In this document: in pieces, positions 39,355-49,739 of the stretch
Position numbering within the stretch: position 1 is the stretch's first letter
Layout of the letters: each line of letters opens with the position of its first letter
Origin: Escherichia coli
GTDB lineage: Bacteria > Pseudomonadota > Gammaproteobacteria > Enterobacterales > Enterobacteriaceae
Reading direction: 5' to 3' (one strand)
DNA: 64,000 nucleotides
Assembly (NCBI RefSeq): GCF_046105845.1
Contig: NZ_CP151004.1
Translations under genes and position numbers: made by a program
The notes under the pieces: generated by a model
What the model was told of the DNA's origin: nothing
Seen by the model: the letters and a program-made list of their open reading frames with translations, nothing else
The model's database searches: none

Positions 39355-40248
39355 ATGAAACCGCAGGTTTACCACGTCGATGCTTTTACCTCACAACCGT
39401 TTCGCGGCAATTCTGCCGGTGTTGTTTTCCCCGCCGATAATCTCAGTGAAGCGCAAATGCAGCTTATCGCCCGCGAATTAGGTCATTCCGAAACTGCTTT
39501 TCTGCTGCACAGCGACGACAGCGATGTGCGCATCCGCTACTTTACGCCAACAGTTGAAGTGCCGATTTGTGGTCACGCGACAGTAGCTGCGCACTATGTA
39601 CGTGCGAAGGTGTTAGGTTTAGGAAATTGCACGGTCTGGCAAACGTCACTGGCAGGAAAACATCGCGTGACTATCGAAAATCACAATGATGATTATCGTA
39701 TTTCACTGGAACAAGGTCCGCCGGGCTTTGAACCGCCGCTGGAGGATGAAGTACGCGCGGCGATTATCAACGCATTGCATCTTACTGAAGACGATATTCT
39801 GCCGGGTTTGCCGATCCAGGTCGCGACGACCGGGCATTCTAAAGTGATGATCCCGTTGAAGCCGGAAGTGGATATCGACGCTCTTTCGCCTGACCTTAAT
39901 GCGCTGACCGCTATCAGTAAACAGATTGGCTGCAATGGTTTCTTCCCGTTCCAGATCCGCCCAGGCAAAAACGAAACCGACGGTCGTATGTTCTCGCCTG
40001 CGATTGGTATTGTGGAAGATCCGGTGACTGGCAATGCCAATGGCCCGATGGGTGCATGGTTGGTACATCACAACGTATTGCCCCACGATGGCAACGTGTT
40101 GTGTGTTAAAGGCCATCAGGGGCGCGCATTGGGGCGTGACGGCGTGATTGAAGTAACGGTGACAATTCGCGATAACCAACCGGAGAAAGTCACCATTTCT
40201 GGCACAGCGGTGATTTTGTTTCATGCCGAATGGGCAATTGAATTCTGA
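39355..40248 (+). CDS. yddE: PhzF-family isomerase-like protein, 297 aa
   Basis: Track ORF; ATG start. Confidence 0.92.
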   Translation: MKPQVYHVDAFTSQPFRGNSAGVVFPADNLSEAQMQLIARELGHSETAFLLHSDDSDVRIRYFTPTVEVPICGHATVAAHYVRAKVLGLGNCTVWQTSLAGKHRVTIENHNDDYRISLEQGPPGFEPPLEDEVRAAIINALHLTEDDILPGLPIQVATTGHSKVMIPLKPEVDIDALSPDLNALTAISKQIGCNGFFPFQIRPGKNETDGRMFSPAIGIVEDPVTGNANGPMGAWLVHHNVLPHDGNVLCVKGHQGRALGRDGVIEVTVTIRDNQPEKVTISGTAVILFHAEWAIEF

Positions 40249-40255
40249 AACCGTT

Positions 40256-40320
40256 GCCTGATGCGCTTCGCTTATCAGGTCTATGTATGCCGGATAAGGC
40301 GTTTACGCCGCATCCGGCAA
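40256..40320. repeat. REP/BIME element (two palindromic units) between convergent yddE and nhoA
   Basis: GCCTGATGCGCTTCGCTTATCAGG and GCCGGATAAGGCGTTTACGCCGCATCCGGC, classic REP sequences. Confidence 0.75.
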
Positions 40321-40331
40321 CCTGACATAAA

Positions 40332-41177
40332 TTATTTTCCCGCCTCCGGGTGCGTATCAAACGCCGCCATCACCAGCGCTAACTCATCCACGGTAAAGCC
40401 ATGTTTCGCATCATCCACCCCCAGACCAAACTGTTCCTGCATCACGGCATATAACGACGCCACATCTGGTAGATTTCGCTGTTCCACCGCGTGCCCATTT
40501 TCATAATGGGTAAAATGAAAATTGGTCAGTGTCAGCTTGCCGCCGTCCGGCAAATGGCGGCACATCAGCAAATGATGGCGAAAATGCGACTGCGGCCAGT
40601 GCGCAGACCAGAAATTGCCCATTACATAATCGCTTTGTTGCTGCTCGCAGAGATCAAAACGGTACATCGACTGCCAGTGCTGATGATGATTAAACTGCAA
40701 CACCCAATCATCACCCTCCTGTAACAACCGATACTCTCCGTGTGGCGTGATCTGCACGAGATCGGGAACTAAACGAATCGGCGCGGTTAGCGTCTGTCCA
40801 CCGAAACCGACATCAGCAATCCATTTTTCCCCTTCCAGTTCCACCAACAGCAAACGATGGGTGCGCGGCGGTAATGCTGGCGGATTTGATAACACTACGC
40901 GCCCTAACAAGCTGCGAACGTTAAACCCCAGCTCGCGTAACACCCGCTCAAACACGCCATTCTGCTCAAAACAGTAACCGCCACGACGGGCTATCACCAG
41001 TTTCTCTTCCAGCGATTGATCATCAAGCTGTATTTCCCTCGGCAGCAAAACGTCGAGGTTTTCAAATGGAATGGTGCAATTGTGTTTCAGGTGCAATGCA
41101 CGAAGCGTATCAATATTGACCGCAGCAGCTCCCGACCAGTTAATACGGGCAAAATAGTGATTCAGAATGGGCGTCAT
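40332..41177 (-). CDS. nhoA: Arylamine N-acetyltransferase (N-hydroxyarylamine O-acetyltransferase), 281 aa
   Basis: Track ORF; recognisable NAT family sequence with catalytic Cys (RRGGYCFEQN). Confidence 0.95.
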   Translation of the reverse strand: MTPILNHYFARINWSGAAAVNIDTLRALHLKHNCTIPFENLDVLLPREIQLDDQSLEEKLVIARRGGYCFEQNGVFERVLRELGFNVRSLLGRVVLSNPPALPPRTHRLLLVELEGEKWIADVGFGGQTLTAPIRLVPDLVQITPHGEYRLLQEGDDWVLQFNHHQHWQSMYRFDLCEQQQSDYVMGNFWSAHWPQSHFRHHLLMCRHLPDGGKLTLTNFHFTHYENGHAVEQRNLPDVASLYAVMQEQFGLGVDDAKHGFTVDELALVMAAFDTHPEAGK

Positions 41178-41349
41178 CAGGCGTTTCCCTTAGTGGTTTT
41201 CTCAACTTATAACCTGGAATAGACGCCGCACCGGCTATTTTGTGCGATCGCGGACATGCATCACGTTTGCAAATCGCCAATCCCGTTAATTTCGTTACTT
41301 ATTGCGTTACGGACTACGCTTAAAAAAACCTTCTTCGCGAGGCGATACC

Positions 41350-41919
41350 ATGAGCCGATTTATCCCCGTCGAATTACACCATGCCAGCCGTCTGTTAAAT
41401 CATGGCGCAACTGTCATGATCACCAGTTTCGATGAGCAATCCCAGCGGCGTAACATTATGGCAGCAGCCTGGTCAATGCCGGTGGAGTTTGAACCGCCAC
41501 GTGTGGCGATTGTGGTAGATAAATCGACATGGACCAGGGAGTTGATTGAACGTAATGGTAAGTTTGGCATCGTTATCCCGGGTGTTGCAGCAACTAACTG
41601 GACGTGGGCGGTGGGAAGTGTGTCGGGGCGTGATGAAGATAAGTTTAATTGCTATGGTATTCCGGTTGTGAAAGGTCCGGTGCTTGGTTTGCCGCTGGTC
41701 GAGGAAAAATGTCTGGCGTGGATGGAGTGTCGCCTGCTACCTGCGACTTCTGCGCAAGAAAAATACGACACACTGTTTGGCGAGGTAGTATCAGCAGCGG
41801 CAGACGCACGGGTATTTGTCGAAGGCCGCTGGCAGTTTGATGATGATAAACTCAATACACTACATCATTTAGGTGCTGGCACGTTTGTTACCAGCGGCAA
41901 GCGTATTACCGCTGGCTAA
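41350..41919 (+). CDS. yddH: Flavin reductase-like domain protein, ~189 aa
   Basis: Track ORF 41302..41919; start at internal Met MSRFIPVELHHASRLL... Confidence 0.88.
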   Translation: MSRFIPVELHHASRLLNHGATVMITSFDEQSQRRNIMAAAWSMPVEFEPPRVAIVVDKSTWTRELIERNGKFGIVIPGVAATNWTWAVGSVSGRDEDKFNCYGIPVVKGPVLGLPLVEEKCLAWMECRLLPATSAQEKYDTLFGEVVSAAADARVFVEGRWQFDDDKLNTLHHLGAGTFVTSGKRITAG

Positions 41920-41987
41920 AGAATCATATGCAGCGACCGGTTTTTTAAGCAATGTTTCCATATGAGTTAAAAGCACATTTTATTTCA

Positions 41988-42185
41988 CGATTGTATATTC
42001 TTAGTGAAGATTAATTTATCCTCACCAACATCATAGTAATTGCGTATTATAGCTTCATTGATAAAGCCCTGTTTTGTATAAAATGCGCGGGCGGCACTAA
42101 AATCGATATGGCTGGAGGTCTCTACTAAAAGTAGTCTTGCGTGATTGGGACAGGTCAAGAAAAAGCAGTTTTGCAGTTTTTTATT
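41988..42185 (-). pseudogene. GNAT-family acetyltransferase C-terminal fragment (no start codon, ~60 codons)
   Basis: Minus-strand stop-to-stop frame translates ...HARLLLVETSSHIDFSAARAFYTKQGFINEAIIRNYYDVGEDKLIFTKNIQS with the A..FY.K.GF GNAT motif; no Met and no upstream acetyl-CoA-binding motifs. Confidence 0.4.
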
Positions 42186-42531
42186 TCAGGGCACAGTTGC
42201 GAAAATTGAATCCCTTATGGACTAATGTGAGAAAATTCCGAGGTATGACTGTTTTGATATAGTGGACAATCAAGCGTCTCGAATTAACAATGAATTTCAG
42301 GTGCCAAGCCTTACAATTTGTAGCATGACGGATATAGGACAACATTAGGAAATCGGACAGAAAATTCATCATAATAAAATGACAACTTATCTCTTTCTCT
42401 CACTTTCTGAGAAATTTCACAAAAGTATAAACTAAGCCAATATGCCTTTATATATAAAAAATACTCATGCTTATTTTTATCGGAAAAATCCAAAATTTTG
42501 TCAAGACCATCAAAAATATCTTTATCATGAT

Positions 42532-43448
42532 CTATATGTACTCTTGATGATGGATCGCTGTGGCGAACTTTTCTGCGGTTAAATCAGCAGAACTGATATA
42601 ATATCTGACCGTCATTTCTGGCTCTTTCTTTTGTTCTGCTATTATGGACCGAAAGGAGACTGCAACGCATAATTTCTTCAGTCCTTTCCATTCAAACGTG
42701 AAATCAATAAGTTCATCAGGGACATCGCAAACAATATGAAGACGGATTTCTTCTCTGCCGTGACTCTTTTCACTAATGGCGTAACTGTCATGTTCTGGAT
42801 TATTTAATTCTTTCAGTGGAAATTTTTCCTCAAAGGCTTTATTAAGCCGCCCCTGATTTCCTTTTACAGCGAATAAATAATCACCGCCCTGTTTTGTATC
42901 TTCTCTGCAATATCTTTCTGGCAACCCATCGCATCAGTTGTGATGATTTTTCCTTTAATATCCAGCATGTTAAGAAGTTCAGGGATAGCTGTAATTTCAT
43001 TGGATTTCTCATCCGTCCTGATCTGTCCGATGACCAGACTGTGCATTGTTGAGAACGCACTAATGACATGAATCGCTCCCTTGCGGCGACTCTTGTCATA
43101 AGAATGCCGGAGTGTTTTTCCATCAATTGCGATGACGTCTTTATCATCTGAAGAATGGCAGTCACGCATCCAGTTAATAAAGCACTCGTGAAATTTTGCA
43201 GGACTGATACAGGATACAACTCTGGCAATGGTATCGTGAACAGGAATACCATTATCAAAATTACCATATTGCTTCAAAAAATCGAGATGTGTTTCCCCAA
43301 AATCCTCTATATCTTCCCAGCCTTCTGCACCCGAAATAACGGCACAAATAGTCAACAGTAGAATATCCGATAATTTATGTTCCACTTTCCAGGCTTGTCT
43401 GTAATCGGGGATAATAGAAATATGTCCCATCAATTTTTTAAGTTCCAT
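42532..43448 (-). mobile_element. ISAs1-family (H-repeat-associated, YdcC-like) transposase, inactivated: frameshift after ~codon 187 and 3'-truncated
   Basis: Two overlapping minus-strand track ORFs (42864..43448, 42532..42924) in different frames; together match an H-repeat transposase up to ...TAEKFATAI, then diverge/stop; frame change maps to a short T-run near 42892-42895. Confidence 0.8.
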
Positions 43449-43836
43449 TTTGTTCTCCTTAATTATGTAAGGAGTATTTGATCATGTATAAGCAATAAAA
43501 ACAGCTTCAGGAAATAAGGAATATCGCAATTTTTAAACATAAAATGCGAATCGTTCAATACAAAAAAGCAGCGTTGCGTAATCTTTCCCTGATTAAATAC
43601 GCTACCGCCCTACCCTGATGACATGATCTGCACTGCACTATCATATCGACATGTTTCTCTACATGCGAAAAGATGTTTTATTTTTGGATTATATTAAATT
43701 GATATTTCATATAAAAAACGAAATTACATCAATCATATAAATAGTTGTACCAACTTTAATTACTATTCATAGCAAACAAATGGATATCCAGTTAACTACG
43801 CCAGTGATTCATTAACATTAACCTCCGGCATTATTG

Positions 43837-44454
43837 TTAAATAATTTCATTCCTTTTTAATACTTCTTGTAATTTCGGTAACTGACATACAGCATCAGCA
43901 ATCGCACTGATATTCGTAGCATTATCCTGAAACCATTCATGCCCCGGCCCCCATGTGCGCATGGTGCAGAGATAACAGTCCACCAGCGTTAGTTGCTCAC
44001 CAAAGGCATAAGGTTCAGCGGTCAATTGTGAATTCAGCCAGATATAAAGCGATTTGCGATATTCAATTACATTCCTCTTTAACTGTTCAGGCGCGTCAGG
44101 AGCCCAACGCTCAGGGTAATCGGCGAAAGTGAATGTTGGATAGACATTAGCAACCAGCCAGACCAATAGCCGTTGAAACTGCTGACGTTCGGCGCGCCCA
44201 AGCGGTGGCGCAAGGTCCGGGCGACGATCGAGAACCATCAATGCAATCGCCGCTGTCTCCGTCATAATCTCGTCATTTTCCAGCGCCAGTGTCGGAATCT
44301 GACACAACGGGTTCAGGGTTTTCAATAACTCGCGTGAAGTTCCCTCGTGGTCAAAACCACTGACATCAACGAACTGATAAGGAATATCAGCCAGTGTTAG
44401 CATCAGCTCACTGATTGTAGAGCCCCATCCGGGTACGCCATACACCTTAATCAT
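43837..44454 (-). CDS. yncG: Glutathione S-transferase family protein, 205 aa
   Basis: Track ORF; GST-fold N-terminus (MIKVYGVPGWGST...). Confidence 0.88.
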   Translation of the reverse strand: MIKVYGVPGWGSTISELMLTLADIPYQFVDVSGFDHEGTSRELLKTLNPLCQIPTLALENDEIMTETAAIALMVLDRRPDLAPPLGRAERQQFQRLLVWLVANVYPTFTFADYPERWAPDAPEQLKRNVIEYRKSLYIWLNSQLTAEPYAFGEQLTLVDCYLCTMRTWGPGHEWFQDNATNISAIADAVCQLPKLQEVLKRNEII

Positions 44455-47636: not shown

Positions 47637-49739
47637 ATGAAGATTTTTTCCGTCCGACAGACCGTTTTGCCCGCACTGCTTGTCCTTTCCCCCGTTGTTT
47701 TTGCCGCTGATGAACAGACCATGATTGTCAGTGCCGCACCGCAGGTGGTTTCAGAACTGGATACCCCAGCAGCCGTGAGCGTGGTGGATGGCGAGGAGAT
47801 GCGCCTGGCAACACCGCGCATTAACTTGTCCGAATCACTGACCAGCGTGCCTGGTTTGCAGGTACAAAACCGGCAGAACTATGCGCAAGATTTACAGCTG
47901 TCGATTCGCGGATTTGGCTCCCGCTCCACTTACGGAATTCGCGGTATTCGCCTGTATGTGGACGGTATTCCCGCCACCATGCCCGACGGACAAGGGCAAA
48001 CATCCAACATCGATTTAAGCAGTGTACAAAATGTGGAAGTGCTGCGCGGCCCCTTCTCTGCCCTGTATGGCAACGCCTCCGGCGGGGTGATGAATGTCAC
48101 TACGCAAACCGGACAGCAACCGCCAACCATTGAAGCCAGTAGTTACTACGGCAGTTTTGGCAGCTGGCGCTATGGGCTGAAAGCAACGGGCGCAACGGGC
48201 GACGGCACACAGCCTGGCGATGTCGATTACACCGTCTCAACCACGCGCTTTACGACCCACGGCTATCGTGACCATAGCGGCGCACAGAAAAATTTGGCCA
48301 ATGCCAAACTGGGCGTACGCATTGATGAAGCCAGTAAATTAAGCCTGATTTTCAATAGTGTGGATATCAAAGCAGATGATCCTGGTGGATTAACCGAAGC
48401 AGAATGGAAGGCGAATCCGCAACAAGCGCCACGCGCTGAACAGTACGACACGCGAAAAAGCATCAAGCAAACTCAGGCTGGGTTGCGCTATGAACGTAGC
48501 CTGAGCGCACAAGATGATATGAGTGTAATGATGTATGCCGGAGAGCGAGAAACGACCCAGTACCAGTCAATACCCATGGCACCACAACTTAACCCGTCGC
48601 ATGCGGGCGGCGTGATTACTCTGCAACGCCATTATCAGGGGATAGACAGCCGCTGGACACACCGTGGCGAGCTGGGCGTTCCGGTCACGTTCACTACTGG
48701 CCTGAACTACGAAAACATGAGTGAAAACCGCAAGGGCTACAATAACTTCCGCCTGTATAGCGGCGTGCCGGAATACGGGCAAAAAGGTGAGTTGCGCCGC
48801 GACGAACGCAATCTGATGTGGAACGTCGATCCCTATTTACAGACACAGTGGCAGCTGAGTGAAAAACTGTCGCTGGATGCTGGCGTGCGCTACAGTTCCG
48901 TGTGGTTTGATTCCAACGACCATTACGTTACTCCGGGTAACGGCGATGACAGCGGTGATGCCAGTTATCACAAATGGCTACCTGCCGGATCGTTAAAATA
49001 TGCAATGACCGATGCCTGGAATATCTATCTGGCAGCCGGGCGTGGTTTTGAAACGCCGACGATTAATGAGCTGTCTTATCGTGCTGACGGTCAAAGCGGT
49101 ATGAACTTTGGTTTAAAACCATCCACCAACGATACAATTGAGATCGGCAGTAAAACGCGTATTGGTGATGGGCTGCTTAGTCTCGCATTGTTCCAGACCG
49201 ACACCGATGATGAAATTGTTGTTGATAGCAGTAGCGGTGGGCGTACGACTTACAAAAATGCCGGAAAGACCCGTCGTCAAGGCGCTGAACTGGCATGGGA
49301 TCAACGTTTCGCGGGAGATTTTCGCGTAAACGCGTCCTGGACCTGGCTCGATGCGACCTATCGCAGCAATGTGTGCAATGAACAGGATTGTAACGGTAAC
49401 CGGATGCCAGGGATCGCCCGTAATATGGGCTTTGCGTCGATAGGTTATGTACCGGAAGATGGCTGGTATGCAGGTACGGAAGCGCGTTACATGGGCGATA
49501 TTATGGCAGATGATGAAAATACGGCCAAAGCGCCGTCTTATACTCTCGTCGGCTTATTCACCGGGTATAAATACAATTACCACAATTTAACTGTGGATTT
49601 ATTTGGTTGTGTCGATAATTTATTCGATAAAGGATACGTTGGTTCTGTCATTGTCAATGAGTCAAACGGGCGATATTACGAACCTGCGCCCGGGCGAAAT
49701 TATGGTGTCGGCATGAATATTGCGTGGCGATTTGAGTAA
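47637..49739 (+). CDS. yncD: TonB-dependent outer membrane receptor, 700 aa
   Basis: Track ORF 47478..49739; start at Met MKIFSVRQTVLPALLVLSPVVFA (signal peptide); C-terminal ...AWRFE barrel terminus. Confidence 0.92.
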   Translation: MKIFSVRQTVLPALLVLSPVVFAADEQTMIVSAAPQVVSELDTPAAVSVVDGEEMRLATPRINLSESLTSVPGLQVQNRQNYAQDLQLSIRGFGSRSTYGIRGIRLYVDGIPATMPDGQGQTSNIDLSSVQNVEVLRGPFSALYGNASGGVMNVTTQTGQQPPTIEASSYYGSFGSWRYGLKATGATGDGTQPGDVDYTVSTTRFTTHGYRDHSGAQKNLANAKLGVRIDEASKLSLIFNSVDIKADDPGGLTEAEWKANPQQAPRAEQYDTRKSIKQTQAGLRYERSLSAQDDMSVMMYAGERETTQYQSIPMAPQLNPSHAGGVITLQRHYQGIDSRWTHRGELGVPVTFTTGLNYENMSENRKGYNNFRLYSGVPEYGQKGELRRDERNLMWNVDPYLQTQWQLSEKLSLDAGVRYSSVWFDSNDHYVTPGNGDDSGDASYHKWLPAGSLKYAMTDAWNIYLAAGRGFETPTINELSYRADGQSGMNFGLKPSTNDTIEIGSKTRIGDGLLSLALFQTDTDDEIVVDSSSGGRTTYKNAGKTRRQGAELAWDQRFAGDFRVNASWTWLDATYRSNVCNEQDCNGNRMPGIARNMGFASIGYVPEDGWYAGTEARYMGDIMADDENTAKAPSYTLVGLFTGYKYNYHNLTVDLFGCVDNLFDKGYVGSVIVNESNGRYYEPAPGRNYGVGMNIAWRFE

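Follow-up and report, generated by a model that had tools for sequence, protein, structure and literature searches.

The yncG-yddH site in described strains

In Escherichia coli, the chromosomal site between yncG and pptA has been described as Rhs "position 6", at which some strains carry vestiges or relics, and it is inferred to be ancestral in the species, with a relic found even in E. albertii (Jackson et al. 2009, PMC2935791). In strain CFT073, the genes c1882-c1889 form a cryptic operon that is regulated by RfaH and silenced by H-NS (Hustmyer et al. 2022, PMC9765446). An ops sequence at CFT073 1715753-1715764, identical to the one in the DNA analysed here, was bound by RfaH in ChIP-seq; the c1882 promoter is silenced by H-NS/StpA, and it took a delta-hns delta-stpA double mutant for RfaH to be seen at this site (PMC9765446).

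The cargo carried between the same flanking genes varies from strain to strain, and alternative cargo was seen in eight other strains. Strains 536, 118UI and CFT073 have PAAR-VgrG-M35 effector islands, strains 1190, JNE070796, 2012C-4502 and AF40 have a VgrG-Rhs-immunity operon together with ISAs1, and K-12 has rhsE' and H-repeats. Genes for vgrG/PAAR are found at the site in 536, 118UI, CFT073, 1190 and JNE070796, and in AF40 and 2012C-4502 the Rhs cargo lies between two ISAs1-family copies in direct orientation. The K-12 order is yncG-yncH-rhsE'-ydcD-yncO-yncI'-ydcC-pptA-yddH, which agrees with the order given in a first-pass annotation of our sequence. In other strains, a leader on the yncG side, with an ops that loads RfaH, would drive a PAAR/VgrG-Rhs (or other effector)-immunity operon toward yddH, with ISAs1 (H-repeat) copies at one or both operon ends.

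The interval between yddH and yncG in the window

The window, the whole 64-kb stretch of DNA that was analysed, is E. coli-like chromosome that is colinear with K-12 in inverted orientation. We call it E. coli-like because identity over the flanking core genes reaches 98.0-98.7% with the best-matching genome among 5,426 of E. coli, and 97.4% with K-12. Its yddH and yncG are both intact and lie 1,917 bp apart (41920-43836), and the GC content of this interval is 36.3%, as against 51.1% and 49.8% in the flanks. Synteny with K-12 and the eight other strains places the interval between yncG and pptA/yddH, as in Rhs position 6. From the comparisons below, we consider it probable (about 85%) that this stretch is what is left, without function, as a scar of ancestral position 6, a T6SS auxiliary effector island between yncG and pptA/yddH. 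Here the cargo would have been lost, leaving the leader, a crippled ISAs1 copy and truncated accessory genes proximal to yddH. The features are as follows.

41350 to 41919, plus strand: yddH (flavin reductase-like), left boundary, 189 aa, 181/189 identical to K-12 YddH
41920 to 41967, minus strand: probable pptA 3' relic, about 16 codons, HMETLLKKPVAAYDSL versus K-12 QMEALIKKPGYSMNA in a local alignment
41985 to 42146, minus strand: last 51 codons, with the stop codon, of a GNAT gene of about 155 aa, from alignment with strain 2012C-4502
42147 to 42310, no strand: non-coding remnant from junction J1 to the stop codon of a 211-aa ORF, colinear with 1190, AF40, 118UI and ETEC1738
42311 to 42551, minus strand: 3' end (about 80 codons) of the 211-aa ORF, from tblastn with the AF40 and 118UI proteins at 81-82% identity
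42552 to 43591, minus strand: ISAs1-family H-repeat remnant (ydcC-like), 1,040 of 1,290 bp, 96.5% identical to K-12 ydcC nucleotides 1-898
43592 to 43836, minus strand: putative orphaned 5' leader of the lost island, 245 bp, 31% GC, directly downstream of the yncG stop codon
43598 to 43635, minus strand: JUMPstart-like element with ops GGCGGTAGCGTA, the ops running from 43609 to 43598, 6 bp from the IS terminus
43837 to 44454, minus strand: yncG (GST-like), right boundary, 205 aa, 200/205 identical to K-12 YncG

The boundary genes have domain matches (Flavin_Reduct in Pfam at 4.7e-21 for yddH; GST_N_2 and GST_N_3 for yncG), homology to K-12 on the yddH side extends to 41927, and all relics inside the interval share the minus strand. 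Searches of the whole 64-kb window by blastn and tblastn detected no rhsE, ydcD, yncH or yncO, no recognisable pptA gene apart from the 3' trace of about 16 codons, and only nucleotides 1-898 of the 1,137 of ydcC, which bears out the first-pass claim that the Rhs-associated genes of K-12 are missing. The interval has room for fragments only. It holds no rhs core ORF, C-terminal tip or immunity ORF (K-12 rhsE and ydcD queries were unmatched across the 64-kb window) and no vgrG/PAAR or effector/immunity ORFs. Its small AT-rich ORFs had no match in a Pfam search, and its internal repeats are chance-level short matches.

Compared with position 6 as described and with K-12 RhsE, the window shares the site and its flanking genes, the same ISAs1/H-repeat (96.5% to ydcC) and an ops-containing block, but lacks the rhs core, tip, immunity gene, vgrG, yncH and a functional pptA. 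Its two ends also differ from those of K-12: the yddH-proximal end is a GNAT-type haplotype rather than pptA, and the yncG-proximal end is a leader of the B2/118UI type, where K-12 has its yncH spacer. The lineage would thus be without, at this locus, the T6SS/Rhs toxin-immunity module, PptA and YncH that most E. coli carry there, and the interval is best annotated as pseudogene fragments, not as genes.

The relic assigned to the pptA 3' end, supported by about 45 nt at about 70% identity, is probable; it occupies the syntenic, convergent position beside the yddH stop when aligned to the pptA 3' ends of K-12 and 504239, the latter alignment extending to window position 41964. Next to it, the GNAT gene is cut by J1, a 463-bp deletion at about 42144-42146 that, relative to 2012C-4502, took out the first 104 codons and with them the acetyl-CoA motif QRQGVG. 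The 57-aa ORF of the remaining fragment has no Pfam match, and the acetyl-CoA-binding motif (Q/R-x-x-G-x-G/A) belongs to the deleted part. The full-length homologue in 2012C-4502, complete save for one nonsense codon, matches Acetyltransf_7, Acetyltransf_1 and Acetyltransf_10 in Pfam. Strain 1190 shares this deletion, as do the 237 genomes having the whole 632-bp segment.

Beyond J1, the AT-rich stretch 42147-42551 has a GC content of 32.6% (about 33-38% in its non-coding part, 42147-42310). The first-pass annotation had described these roughly 400 bp as free of ORFs, which does not hold, since they contain the 3' end of the 211-aa ORF. That ORF is intact in AF40 and 118UI and is annotated as "aminopeptidase" or hypothetical in other genomes; the full protein belongs to no family in Pfam or NCBIfam. 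The GNAT fragment, the AT-rich stretch and the transposase remnant listed in the same annotation are real, but the 245-bp leader and the pptA trace had been overlooked. The GNAT-type yddH-proximal haplotype is a minority one, found in 660 of the 5,426 genomes, as against 4,653 with the pptA type, and the yddH side of the window is closest to the arrangement of 1190, 2012C-4502 and ETEC1738 (96.5%).

The ISAs1 remnant and junction J2

With IS ends set from intact copies and from the points at which flanks diverge, the remnant retains its left terminus at 43591 (...GATCTTTCCCTG on the plus strand). Its right 249 bp are deleted at J2 (42551|42552), and this loss takes in the right inverted repeat as well as the C-terminal end of the transposase (about 80 codons). 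A -1 frameshift in a T run after 42891 further divides the transposase into ORF fragments at 43448-42864 and 42924-42532. The remnant matches DDE_Tnp_1_assoc (PF13808, 1.8e-33), DDE_Tnp_1 (PF01609, 2.8e-12) and the NCBIfam profile transpos_ISAs1 (NF033564, 1.9e-69), the last over only profile positions 1-159 of 314; the second transposase ORF has no Pfam match. It thus resembles the ISAs1 family (H-repeats, ISEc1/ISEc5, about 1,290 bp) in its transposase N-terminal domains and left terminal repeat CAGGGAAAGAT, but differs in being frameshifted and without the right inverted repeat. A complete element has both terminal inverted repeats and an uninterrupted ORF of about 378 aa, and this structure is absent here. 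Since the right inverted repeat and the C-terminal codons are gone and the ORF is frameshifted, this copy cannot transpose, and it is a remnant rather than an active member of the family. The flanks of the remnant come from different ancestral contexts.

We infer the following order of events. A yddH-proximal haplotype with the GNAT gene and the 211-aa ORF may first have replaced most of pptA, after which the J1 deletion would have truncated GNAT. An ISAs1 copy would then have come to lie inside the 211-aa ORF, as in 1190, 2012C-4502 and ETEC1738, and the island between that copy and a leader-proximal ISAs1 would have been lost, most likely by homologous recombination between two directly oriented copies. 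J2, a 258-bp deletion, would subsequently have removed 9 bp of flank (TTCACAATA) and the right end of the IS, and the -1 frameshift would finally have ended the transposase.

The recombination step is supported by the directly oriented ISAs1 pairs that flank cargo in AF40 and 2012C-4502, and by the J2 left breakpoint, which is only 9 bp away from where the IS is inserted in the 1190/2012C-4502/ETEC1738 arrangement. It is unproven, however, because SNP phasing of the remnant against nine other ISAs1 copies gave a mosaic and no clean hybrid of yncG-side and yddH-side copies; the non-coding 5' end was the more variable part in all comparisons.

This SNP pattern, being no proof of a hybrid IS, also leaves room for a simpler, though rather unlikely, course in which a single deletion ran from inside the leader-proximal ISAs1 (42552) to inside the 211-aa ORF (42551). 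Such a deletion would have taken the right end of the IS along with all of the VgrG/Rhs cargo and a second IS, if there was one. One event would suffice, the junction has a near-microhomology (TGAT..TTC), and the 5' 152 bp of the IS plus the leader show 0 differences to 118UI over 43438-43601, forming one uninterrupted leader-proximal unit. However, the breakpoint would then have fallen within 9 bp of the 1190-type insertion by chance, which corresponds to roughly 18 in 1,100 positions (about 2%), and the closeness of the window's yddH side to the arrangement carrying that insertion also speaks against a single deletion.

The leader sequence and the distribution of the arrangement

The leader is 99.5% identical to that of strain 118UI, is matched at >=99% in 216 genomes, and shares 244 of its 245 bases with the yncG-c1882 leader of CFT073. 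With the CFT073 T6SS auxiliary island (PAAR-VgrG-effector), the window thus has in common the leader with its ops GGCGGTAGCGTA and, next to it, 152 bp of ISAs1 5' end, but the operon that the leader serves there is wholly absent. CFT073, 536 and 118UI have only these 152 bp of the IS at the leader end, against 1,040 bp in the window.

The ops matches the 12-nt consensus GGCGGTAGnnTG (non-template strand of the 5' leader) at 11 of 12 positions. About 34 of the 38 nt of the JUMPstart-like element (alignment columns 73-110) are nearly identical in seven loci whose flanks are otherwise unalignable, and the ops differs in one strain among them; the ops-containing block is also conserved upstream of rhsE' in K-12. 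Between 41500 and 44700, the sole match in an Rfam scan was a sub-threshold JUMPstart hit (RF01707, 19.7 bits, where the gathering cutoff is 35; E = 0.09 for 501 bases).

The exact contiguous arrangement of the interval was found in none of the 5,426 complete E. coli genomes and is thus not the common configuration. As a class, collapsed junctions without Rhs are common: the yddH-yncG distance is within 3 kb in 652 of these genomes (12%), and such Rhs-less collapse of this hotspot has already been described. The first-pass view of an eroded, alternative configuration at a variable Rhs/H-repeat hotspot is upheld by the differing cargo between the same flanks elsewhere and by the published position 6. 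The junctions of HS, 504239/TW11681 and strain 10 are likewise Rhs-less and compact (0.7-2.5 kb) with at most one IS, and the single ISAs1 copy of HS is also 3'-truncated. Unlike the window, HS and 504239 have pptA and yncH, and strain 10 has only an IS1 and a truncated yncG. Since their breakpoints differ from those of the window, these are independent erosion events.

A putative precursor, with a window-type leader, a full ISAs1 and the 211-aa ORF fragment, was present in none of the complete genomes, and an exact-match scan of GTDB species-representative genomes with a 38-mer across J2 gave no match. Four Logan assemblies, independent of one another, show the identical arrangement, and in a fifth the interval is again identical but its flanks are diverged by 1.25% (runs ERR4034258, SRR28309099, SRR31211662, SRR12605517 and SRR22254475). 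Because these independent assemblies agree, we rejected an assembly artefact as the origin of the arrangement. A literature search on the five run accessions found nothing. Both junctions, J1 and J2, can serve as clean markers of the lineage; J2 was seen in 0 of 5,426 complete genomes, whereas public sequencing runs with it number at least five. The finding is mainly housekeeping and opens no long-standing question.

The short interval, and the 12% of complete genomes that are compact here, could also suggest an ancestral site that was never occupied, or a simple intergenic region, with K-12 and others gaining islands later. We give this reading very little credence. The interval has the island's own leader, with an ops identical to the RfaH-bound site of CFT073, an IS remnant without its right end, and three truncated genes with fuller (intact or near-complete) versions in other strains. 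The compact genomes do not share the same breakpoints or the same IS content, as would be expected of losses that occurred independently, and position 6 has been inferred to be ancestral, with its relic in E. albertii (PMC2935791). The reading is thus already contradicted.

It is improbable, too, that the remnant is still regulatory, with the leader loading RfaH and readthrough into the convergent yddH-nhoA exerting antisense modulation. The relics and the ops all lie on the minus strand, pointing toward the yddH 3' end, the ops has the same sequence as a site at which RfaH binding was shown by experiment, and no terminator-like site was found on that strand, such sites in general being no more frequent than in shuffled sequence. 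However, promoter-like matches, among them 43715-43688 and 43669-43640 on the minus strand of the leader, do not exceed chance (8 found versus 8.6 expected from shuffled sequence), and the CFT073 promoter is H-NS/StpA-silenced, with RfaH there only in the double mutant. Still less probable is the specific mechanism in which relief of H-NS would let the leader promoter and the ops recruit RfaH for terminator-resistant transcription into yddH-nhoA. If true, a decayed T6SS/Rhs island would have turned into an antisense regulator that acts on core metabolic genes and depends on RfaH. That the 1.9-kb scar is exactly identical in two lineages whose flanks have diverged would fit such a role, but is equally explained by recent recombination.

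Two different ISAs1-family members sit 1 and 6 bp downstream of ops. Precise targeting of ops by ISAs1 was considered and rejected: in 504239, HS and 2012C, the distance from ops down to the IS end is 132, 310 and 375 bp, and neither at rhsB nor at rhsC does the K-12 H-repeat adjoin a leader ops. Within the scar, the surviving ops leader appears to be a naturally occurring example of a site for RfaH loading that has been parted from its operon, and it could be used as a control locus for RfaH/H-NS studies.

Relics between yddH and yncG

The window, a stretch of E. coli-like chromosome, aligns colinearly with K-12 MG1655 1,573,378-1,506,258, in the opposite orientation and at ~97.4% identity. 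Its genes here run narZYWV, yddE (39355-40248), nhoA (40332-41177, minus strand), yddH (41350-41919, plus strand), the 1,917-bp interval, yncG (43837-44454, minus strand), ansP, yncE and pqqU. The boundary genes yddH and yncG are intact (181/189 identical to K-12 YddH and 200/205 to K-12 YncG). The K-12 order given in the first-pass annotation proved exact, namely yncG, yncH, rhsE (pseudogene), ydcD, yncO, yncI (pseudogene), ydcC, pptA and yddH, and the Rhs-associated genes that it reported as missing are indeed absent: blastn and tblastn with K-12 queries detected no rhsE, ydcD, yncH, yncO or recognisable pptA gene in the 64 kb, apart from a pptA-like trace of ~16 codons. Only ydcC among the K-12 junction genes had a match (nucleotides 1-898 of 1,137, 96.5% identity). 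The interval has 36.3% GC and its flanks 51.1% and 49.8%, and every coding relic in it is encoded on the minus strand.

Features of the interval
41920-41967, minus strand: probable pptA relic, ~16 codons like the pptA 3' end (HMETLLKKPVAAYDSL vs QMEALIKKPGYSMNA), in syntenic position
41985-42146, minus strand: GNAT fragment, the 3'-terminal 51 codons of a GNAT gene of ~155 aa
42147-42551: AT-rich stretch, first an intergenic remnant, then the 3'-terminal ~80 codons of a 211-aa ORF (42311-42551, minus strand)
42552-43591, minus strand: ISAs1-family H-repeat remnant, 1,040 of 1,290 bp (PF13808, 1.8e-33; NF033564, 1.9e-69)
43592-43836, minus strand: orphaned leader, 245 bp, 31% GC

The GNAT fragment and transposase remnant of the first-pass inventory stand; the AT-rich DNA that it called ORF-free contains a gene fragment, and the pptA trace and the leader had been overlooked. 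The resemblance of 41920-41967 to pptA is weak (~45 nt, ~70% identity), and a pptA 3' relic is the probable assignment. In 2012C-4502 the GNAT gene is complete save one nonsense codon, and the reconstructed protein matches Acetyltransf_7, _1 and _10. A 463-bp deletion in this gene (junction J1, 3-bp overlap at 42144-42146), common to strain 1190 and the window, took away the first 104 codons and with them the QRQGVG motif; the 632-bp segment spanning J1 is whole in 237 of the 660 genomes with the GNAT-type haplotype. AF40 and 118UI have the 211-aa ORF intact, and its protein matched no family in Pfam or NCBIfam. On its right side the ISAs1 remnant is short by 249 bp, with the right inverted repeat among them (junction J2, 42551/42552), and a 1-bp deletion in the T run after 42891 breaks the transposase frame. 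Its left terminus (...GATCTTTCCCTG), at 43591, is the point at which eight aligned loci diverge.

The orphaned ops leader

On the minus strand, 43598-43635 matches JUMPstart at 19.7 bits, below the Rfam gathering score of 35, and the ops-like site of the leader, GGCGGTAGCGTA, agrees with the ops consensus at 11 of 12 positions. A conserved block (~34 of the 38 nt of this JUMPstart-like element) is nearly identical in 504239, 2012C-4502, 118UI, 536, AF40 and K-12, where it lies between yncH and rhsE', and the sequence on both of its sides is unalignable between K-12-type and window-type flanks. The AF40 ops differs. The CFT073 leader matches window 43592-43836 at 244 of 245 positions and has an identical ops at 1715753-1715764; the PAAR gene c1882 lies 313 bp downstream of it. 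By ChIP-seq, RfaH binds eight leader ops sites, this one among them, and its operon, c1882-c1889, is described as cryptic, H-NS/StpA-silenced and T6SS-related (PMC9765446). Since the window leader is nearly that of CFT073 and the operon is absent, we infer that the window has kept the RfaH-loading leader of a lost operon.

ISAs1-family left ends lie 1 bp downstream of the common ops in AF40 (L008 18210-18217; a different family member), 6 bp downstream in the window (43592-43597), 118UI, 536 and CFT073, and 132, 310 and 375 bp downstream in 504239, HS and 2012C-4502 (loci L005, L017 and L003). IS copies have arrived here repeatedly and independently, a short way into the island leader, without a fixed distance to ops. 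K-12 rhsC (L019 3629-3640) and rhsB (L020 4238-4249) also each have an ops-like GGCGGTAGCATT on the coding strand, ~46 nt into the coding sequence; these sites are probably just codons of the conserved N-terminus. Ops-like sites within coding regions were unbound by RfaH in the CFT073 study (PMC9765446).

Cargo at the hotspot and formation of the scar

All cargo has been lost from the window, and other strains carry varied cargo between the same flanks, which supports the earlier proposal of an eroded alternative configuration of an Rhs/H-repeat hotspot. In 1190 and JNE070796 the order is leader, yncH, VgrG, Rhs core, immunity gene and ISAs1, then the 211-aa ORF fragment and GNAT fragment; in 2012C-4502 and AF40 an Rhs core and immunity gene lie between two directly oriented ISAs1-family copies; and in 536, 118UI and CFT073 PAAR-VgrG-M35 effector islands lie between a 152-bp IS 5' end and an internal/3' IS fragment. 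K-12 has rhsE' with two H-repeats. The site is Rhs position 6 (yncG to pptA) of Jackson et al. 2009, inferred there to be ancestral in E. coli, although E. albertii and some strains are reported to retain no more than vestiges or relics of it (PMC2935791), and yncG..yddH is also classed as a variable genomic region in a 2026 comparison (PMC12928451). The phenomenon is recurrent decay of a known hotspot and, as such, is already known. By annotation, yncG is frameshifted or truncated in four strains with junction cargo, CFT073 (L016 2408-3026), 536 (L004 14702-15302), AF40 (L008 18458-19057) and JNE070796 (L021 18958-19447), so the boundary gene itself often decays.

The island would have been lost by homologous recombination between leader-proximal and yddH-proximal ISAs1 copies in direct orientation, as the same two-copy architecture in AF40 and 2012C-4502 suggests, and a 258-bp deletion would afterwards have taken the IS right end. 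We favour this two-step history mainly because J2 has its left breakpoint 9 bp away from the ISAs1 insertion point of the 1190/2012C/ETEC1738 arrangement. Under a single random deletion such proximity has a chance of ~2% (rough estimate). SNP phasing of the IS remnant gave a mosaic pattern that favours neither history, so one large deletion is a less probable but serious alternative. The interval is judged from its sequence to be an inert scar, since it has no intact ORF, the IS is immobile and the GNAT fragment has no cofactor motif. Putative ops/RfaH-dependent read-through towards the convergent yddH is speculative and unlikely, given H-NS silencing of the leader promoter in CFT073.

Frequency, lineage and neighbouring differences

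Arrangements among 5,426 complete E. coli genomes
pptA present: 4,653 genomes (86%)
K-12-type yncH spacer present: 3,837 (71%)
Window-type leader, at least 80% covered: 695 (13%)
Window-type leader, at least 99% identical: 216
GNAT-type segment present: 660 (12%)
yddH-yncG distance within 3 kb, by a chimeric query with 2.5 kb per flank: 652 (12%)
Window interval contiguous: 0; best 87%, in two pieces

The interval is therefore not the common E. coli configuration, the case that would have refuted the first-pass reading. Compact genomes vary in content: HS has yddH-pptA-ISAs1 (3'-truncated)-yncH-yncG, a single intact ydcC is present in 504239 and in TW11681, and strain 10 has IS1 only, plus a truncated yncG. 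Public sequencing runs contain the exact 194-aa frameshifted transposase ORF in 10 contigs. Among the loci retrieved, four are 99.97-100% identical to the window, and in a fifth, SRR22254475, the whole interval is identical and the flanks differ at 1.25% of positions. The arrangement is thus real, heritable, present in at least two lineages, and rare. The junction 38-mer had no exact match in GTDB species-representative genomes. Best matches of only 98.0-98.7% for the flanking core genes among the 5,426 RefSeq genomes indicate a lineage without a close representative in that set.

The nhoA-yddH segment beside the hotspot (40249-41500) is unusually divergent (best complete genome 98.0%), and sampled loci are 93-97% identical to window 41001-42551. 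In SRR22254475 the differences are concentrated in 41250-41500 (16) and 48000-48250 (15), and 41800-44000 is identical, a pattern suggestive of mosaic recombination about the junction. Three independent Logan contigs stop at 40290, within the yddE-nhoA spacer; its equivalents in K-12 (L002 16876-16914) and 504239 (L005 1489-1527) match Rfam naRNA4 (REP-type) below threshold, and IS1397 is inserted there in 118UI. A REP/BIME repeat in this spacer is the probable cause of the breaks in short-read assemblies.

Elsewhere, window 60779-61017 lacks ~444 bp of K-12 1,509,241-1,509,686, taking in hicA together with the 5' portion of hicB; the remaining 67-aa ORF (60779-60982, minus strand) matches the C-terminal DNA-binding part of HicB, and the HicAB toxin-antitoxin pair appears deleted or decayed in this lineage. 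In place of the K-12 fragments yddL, yddK and yddJ, window 26979-30827 encodes an intact 366-aa porin (Porin_1, 2.2e-134), then two leucine-rich-repeat ORFs (421 and 425 aa), with 27263-28794 and 29127-29768 having no K-12 counterpart.
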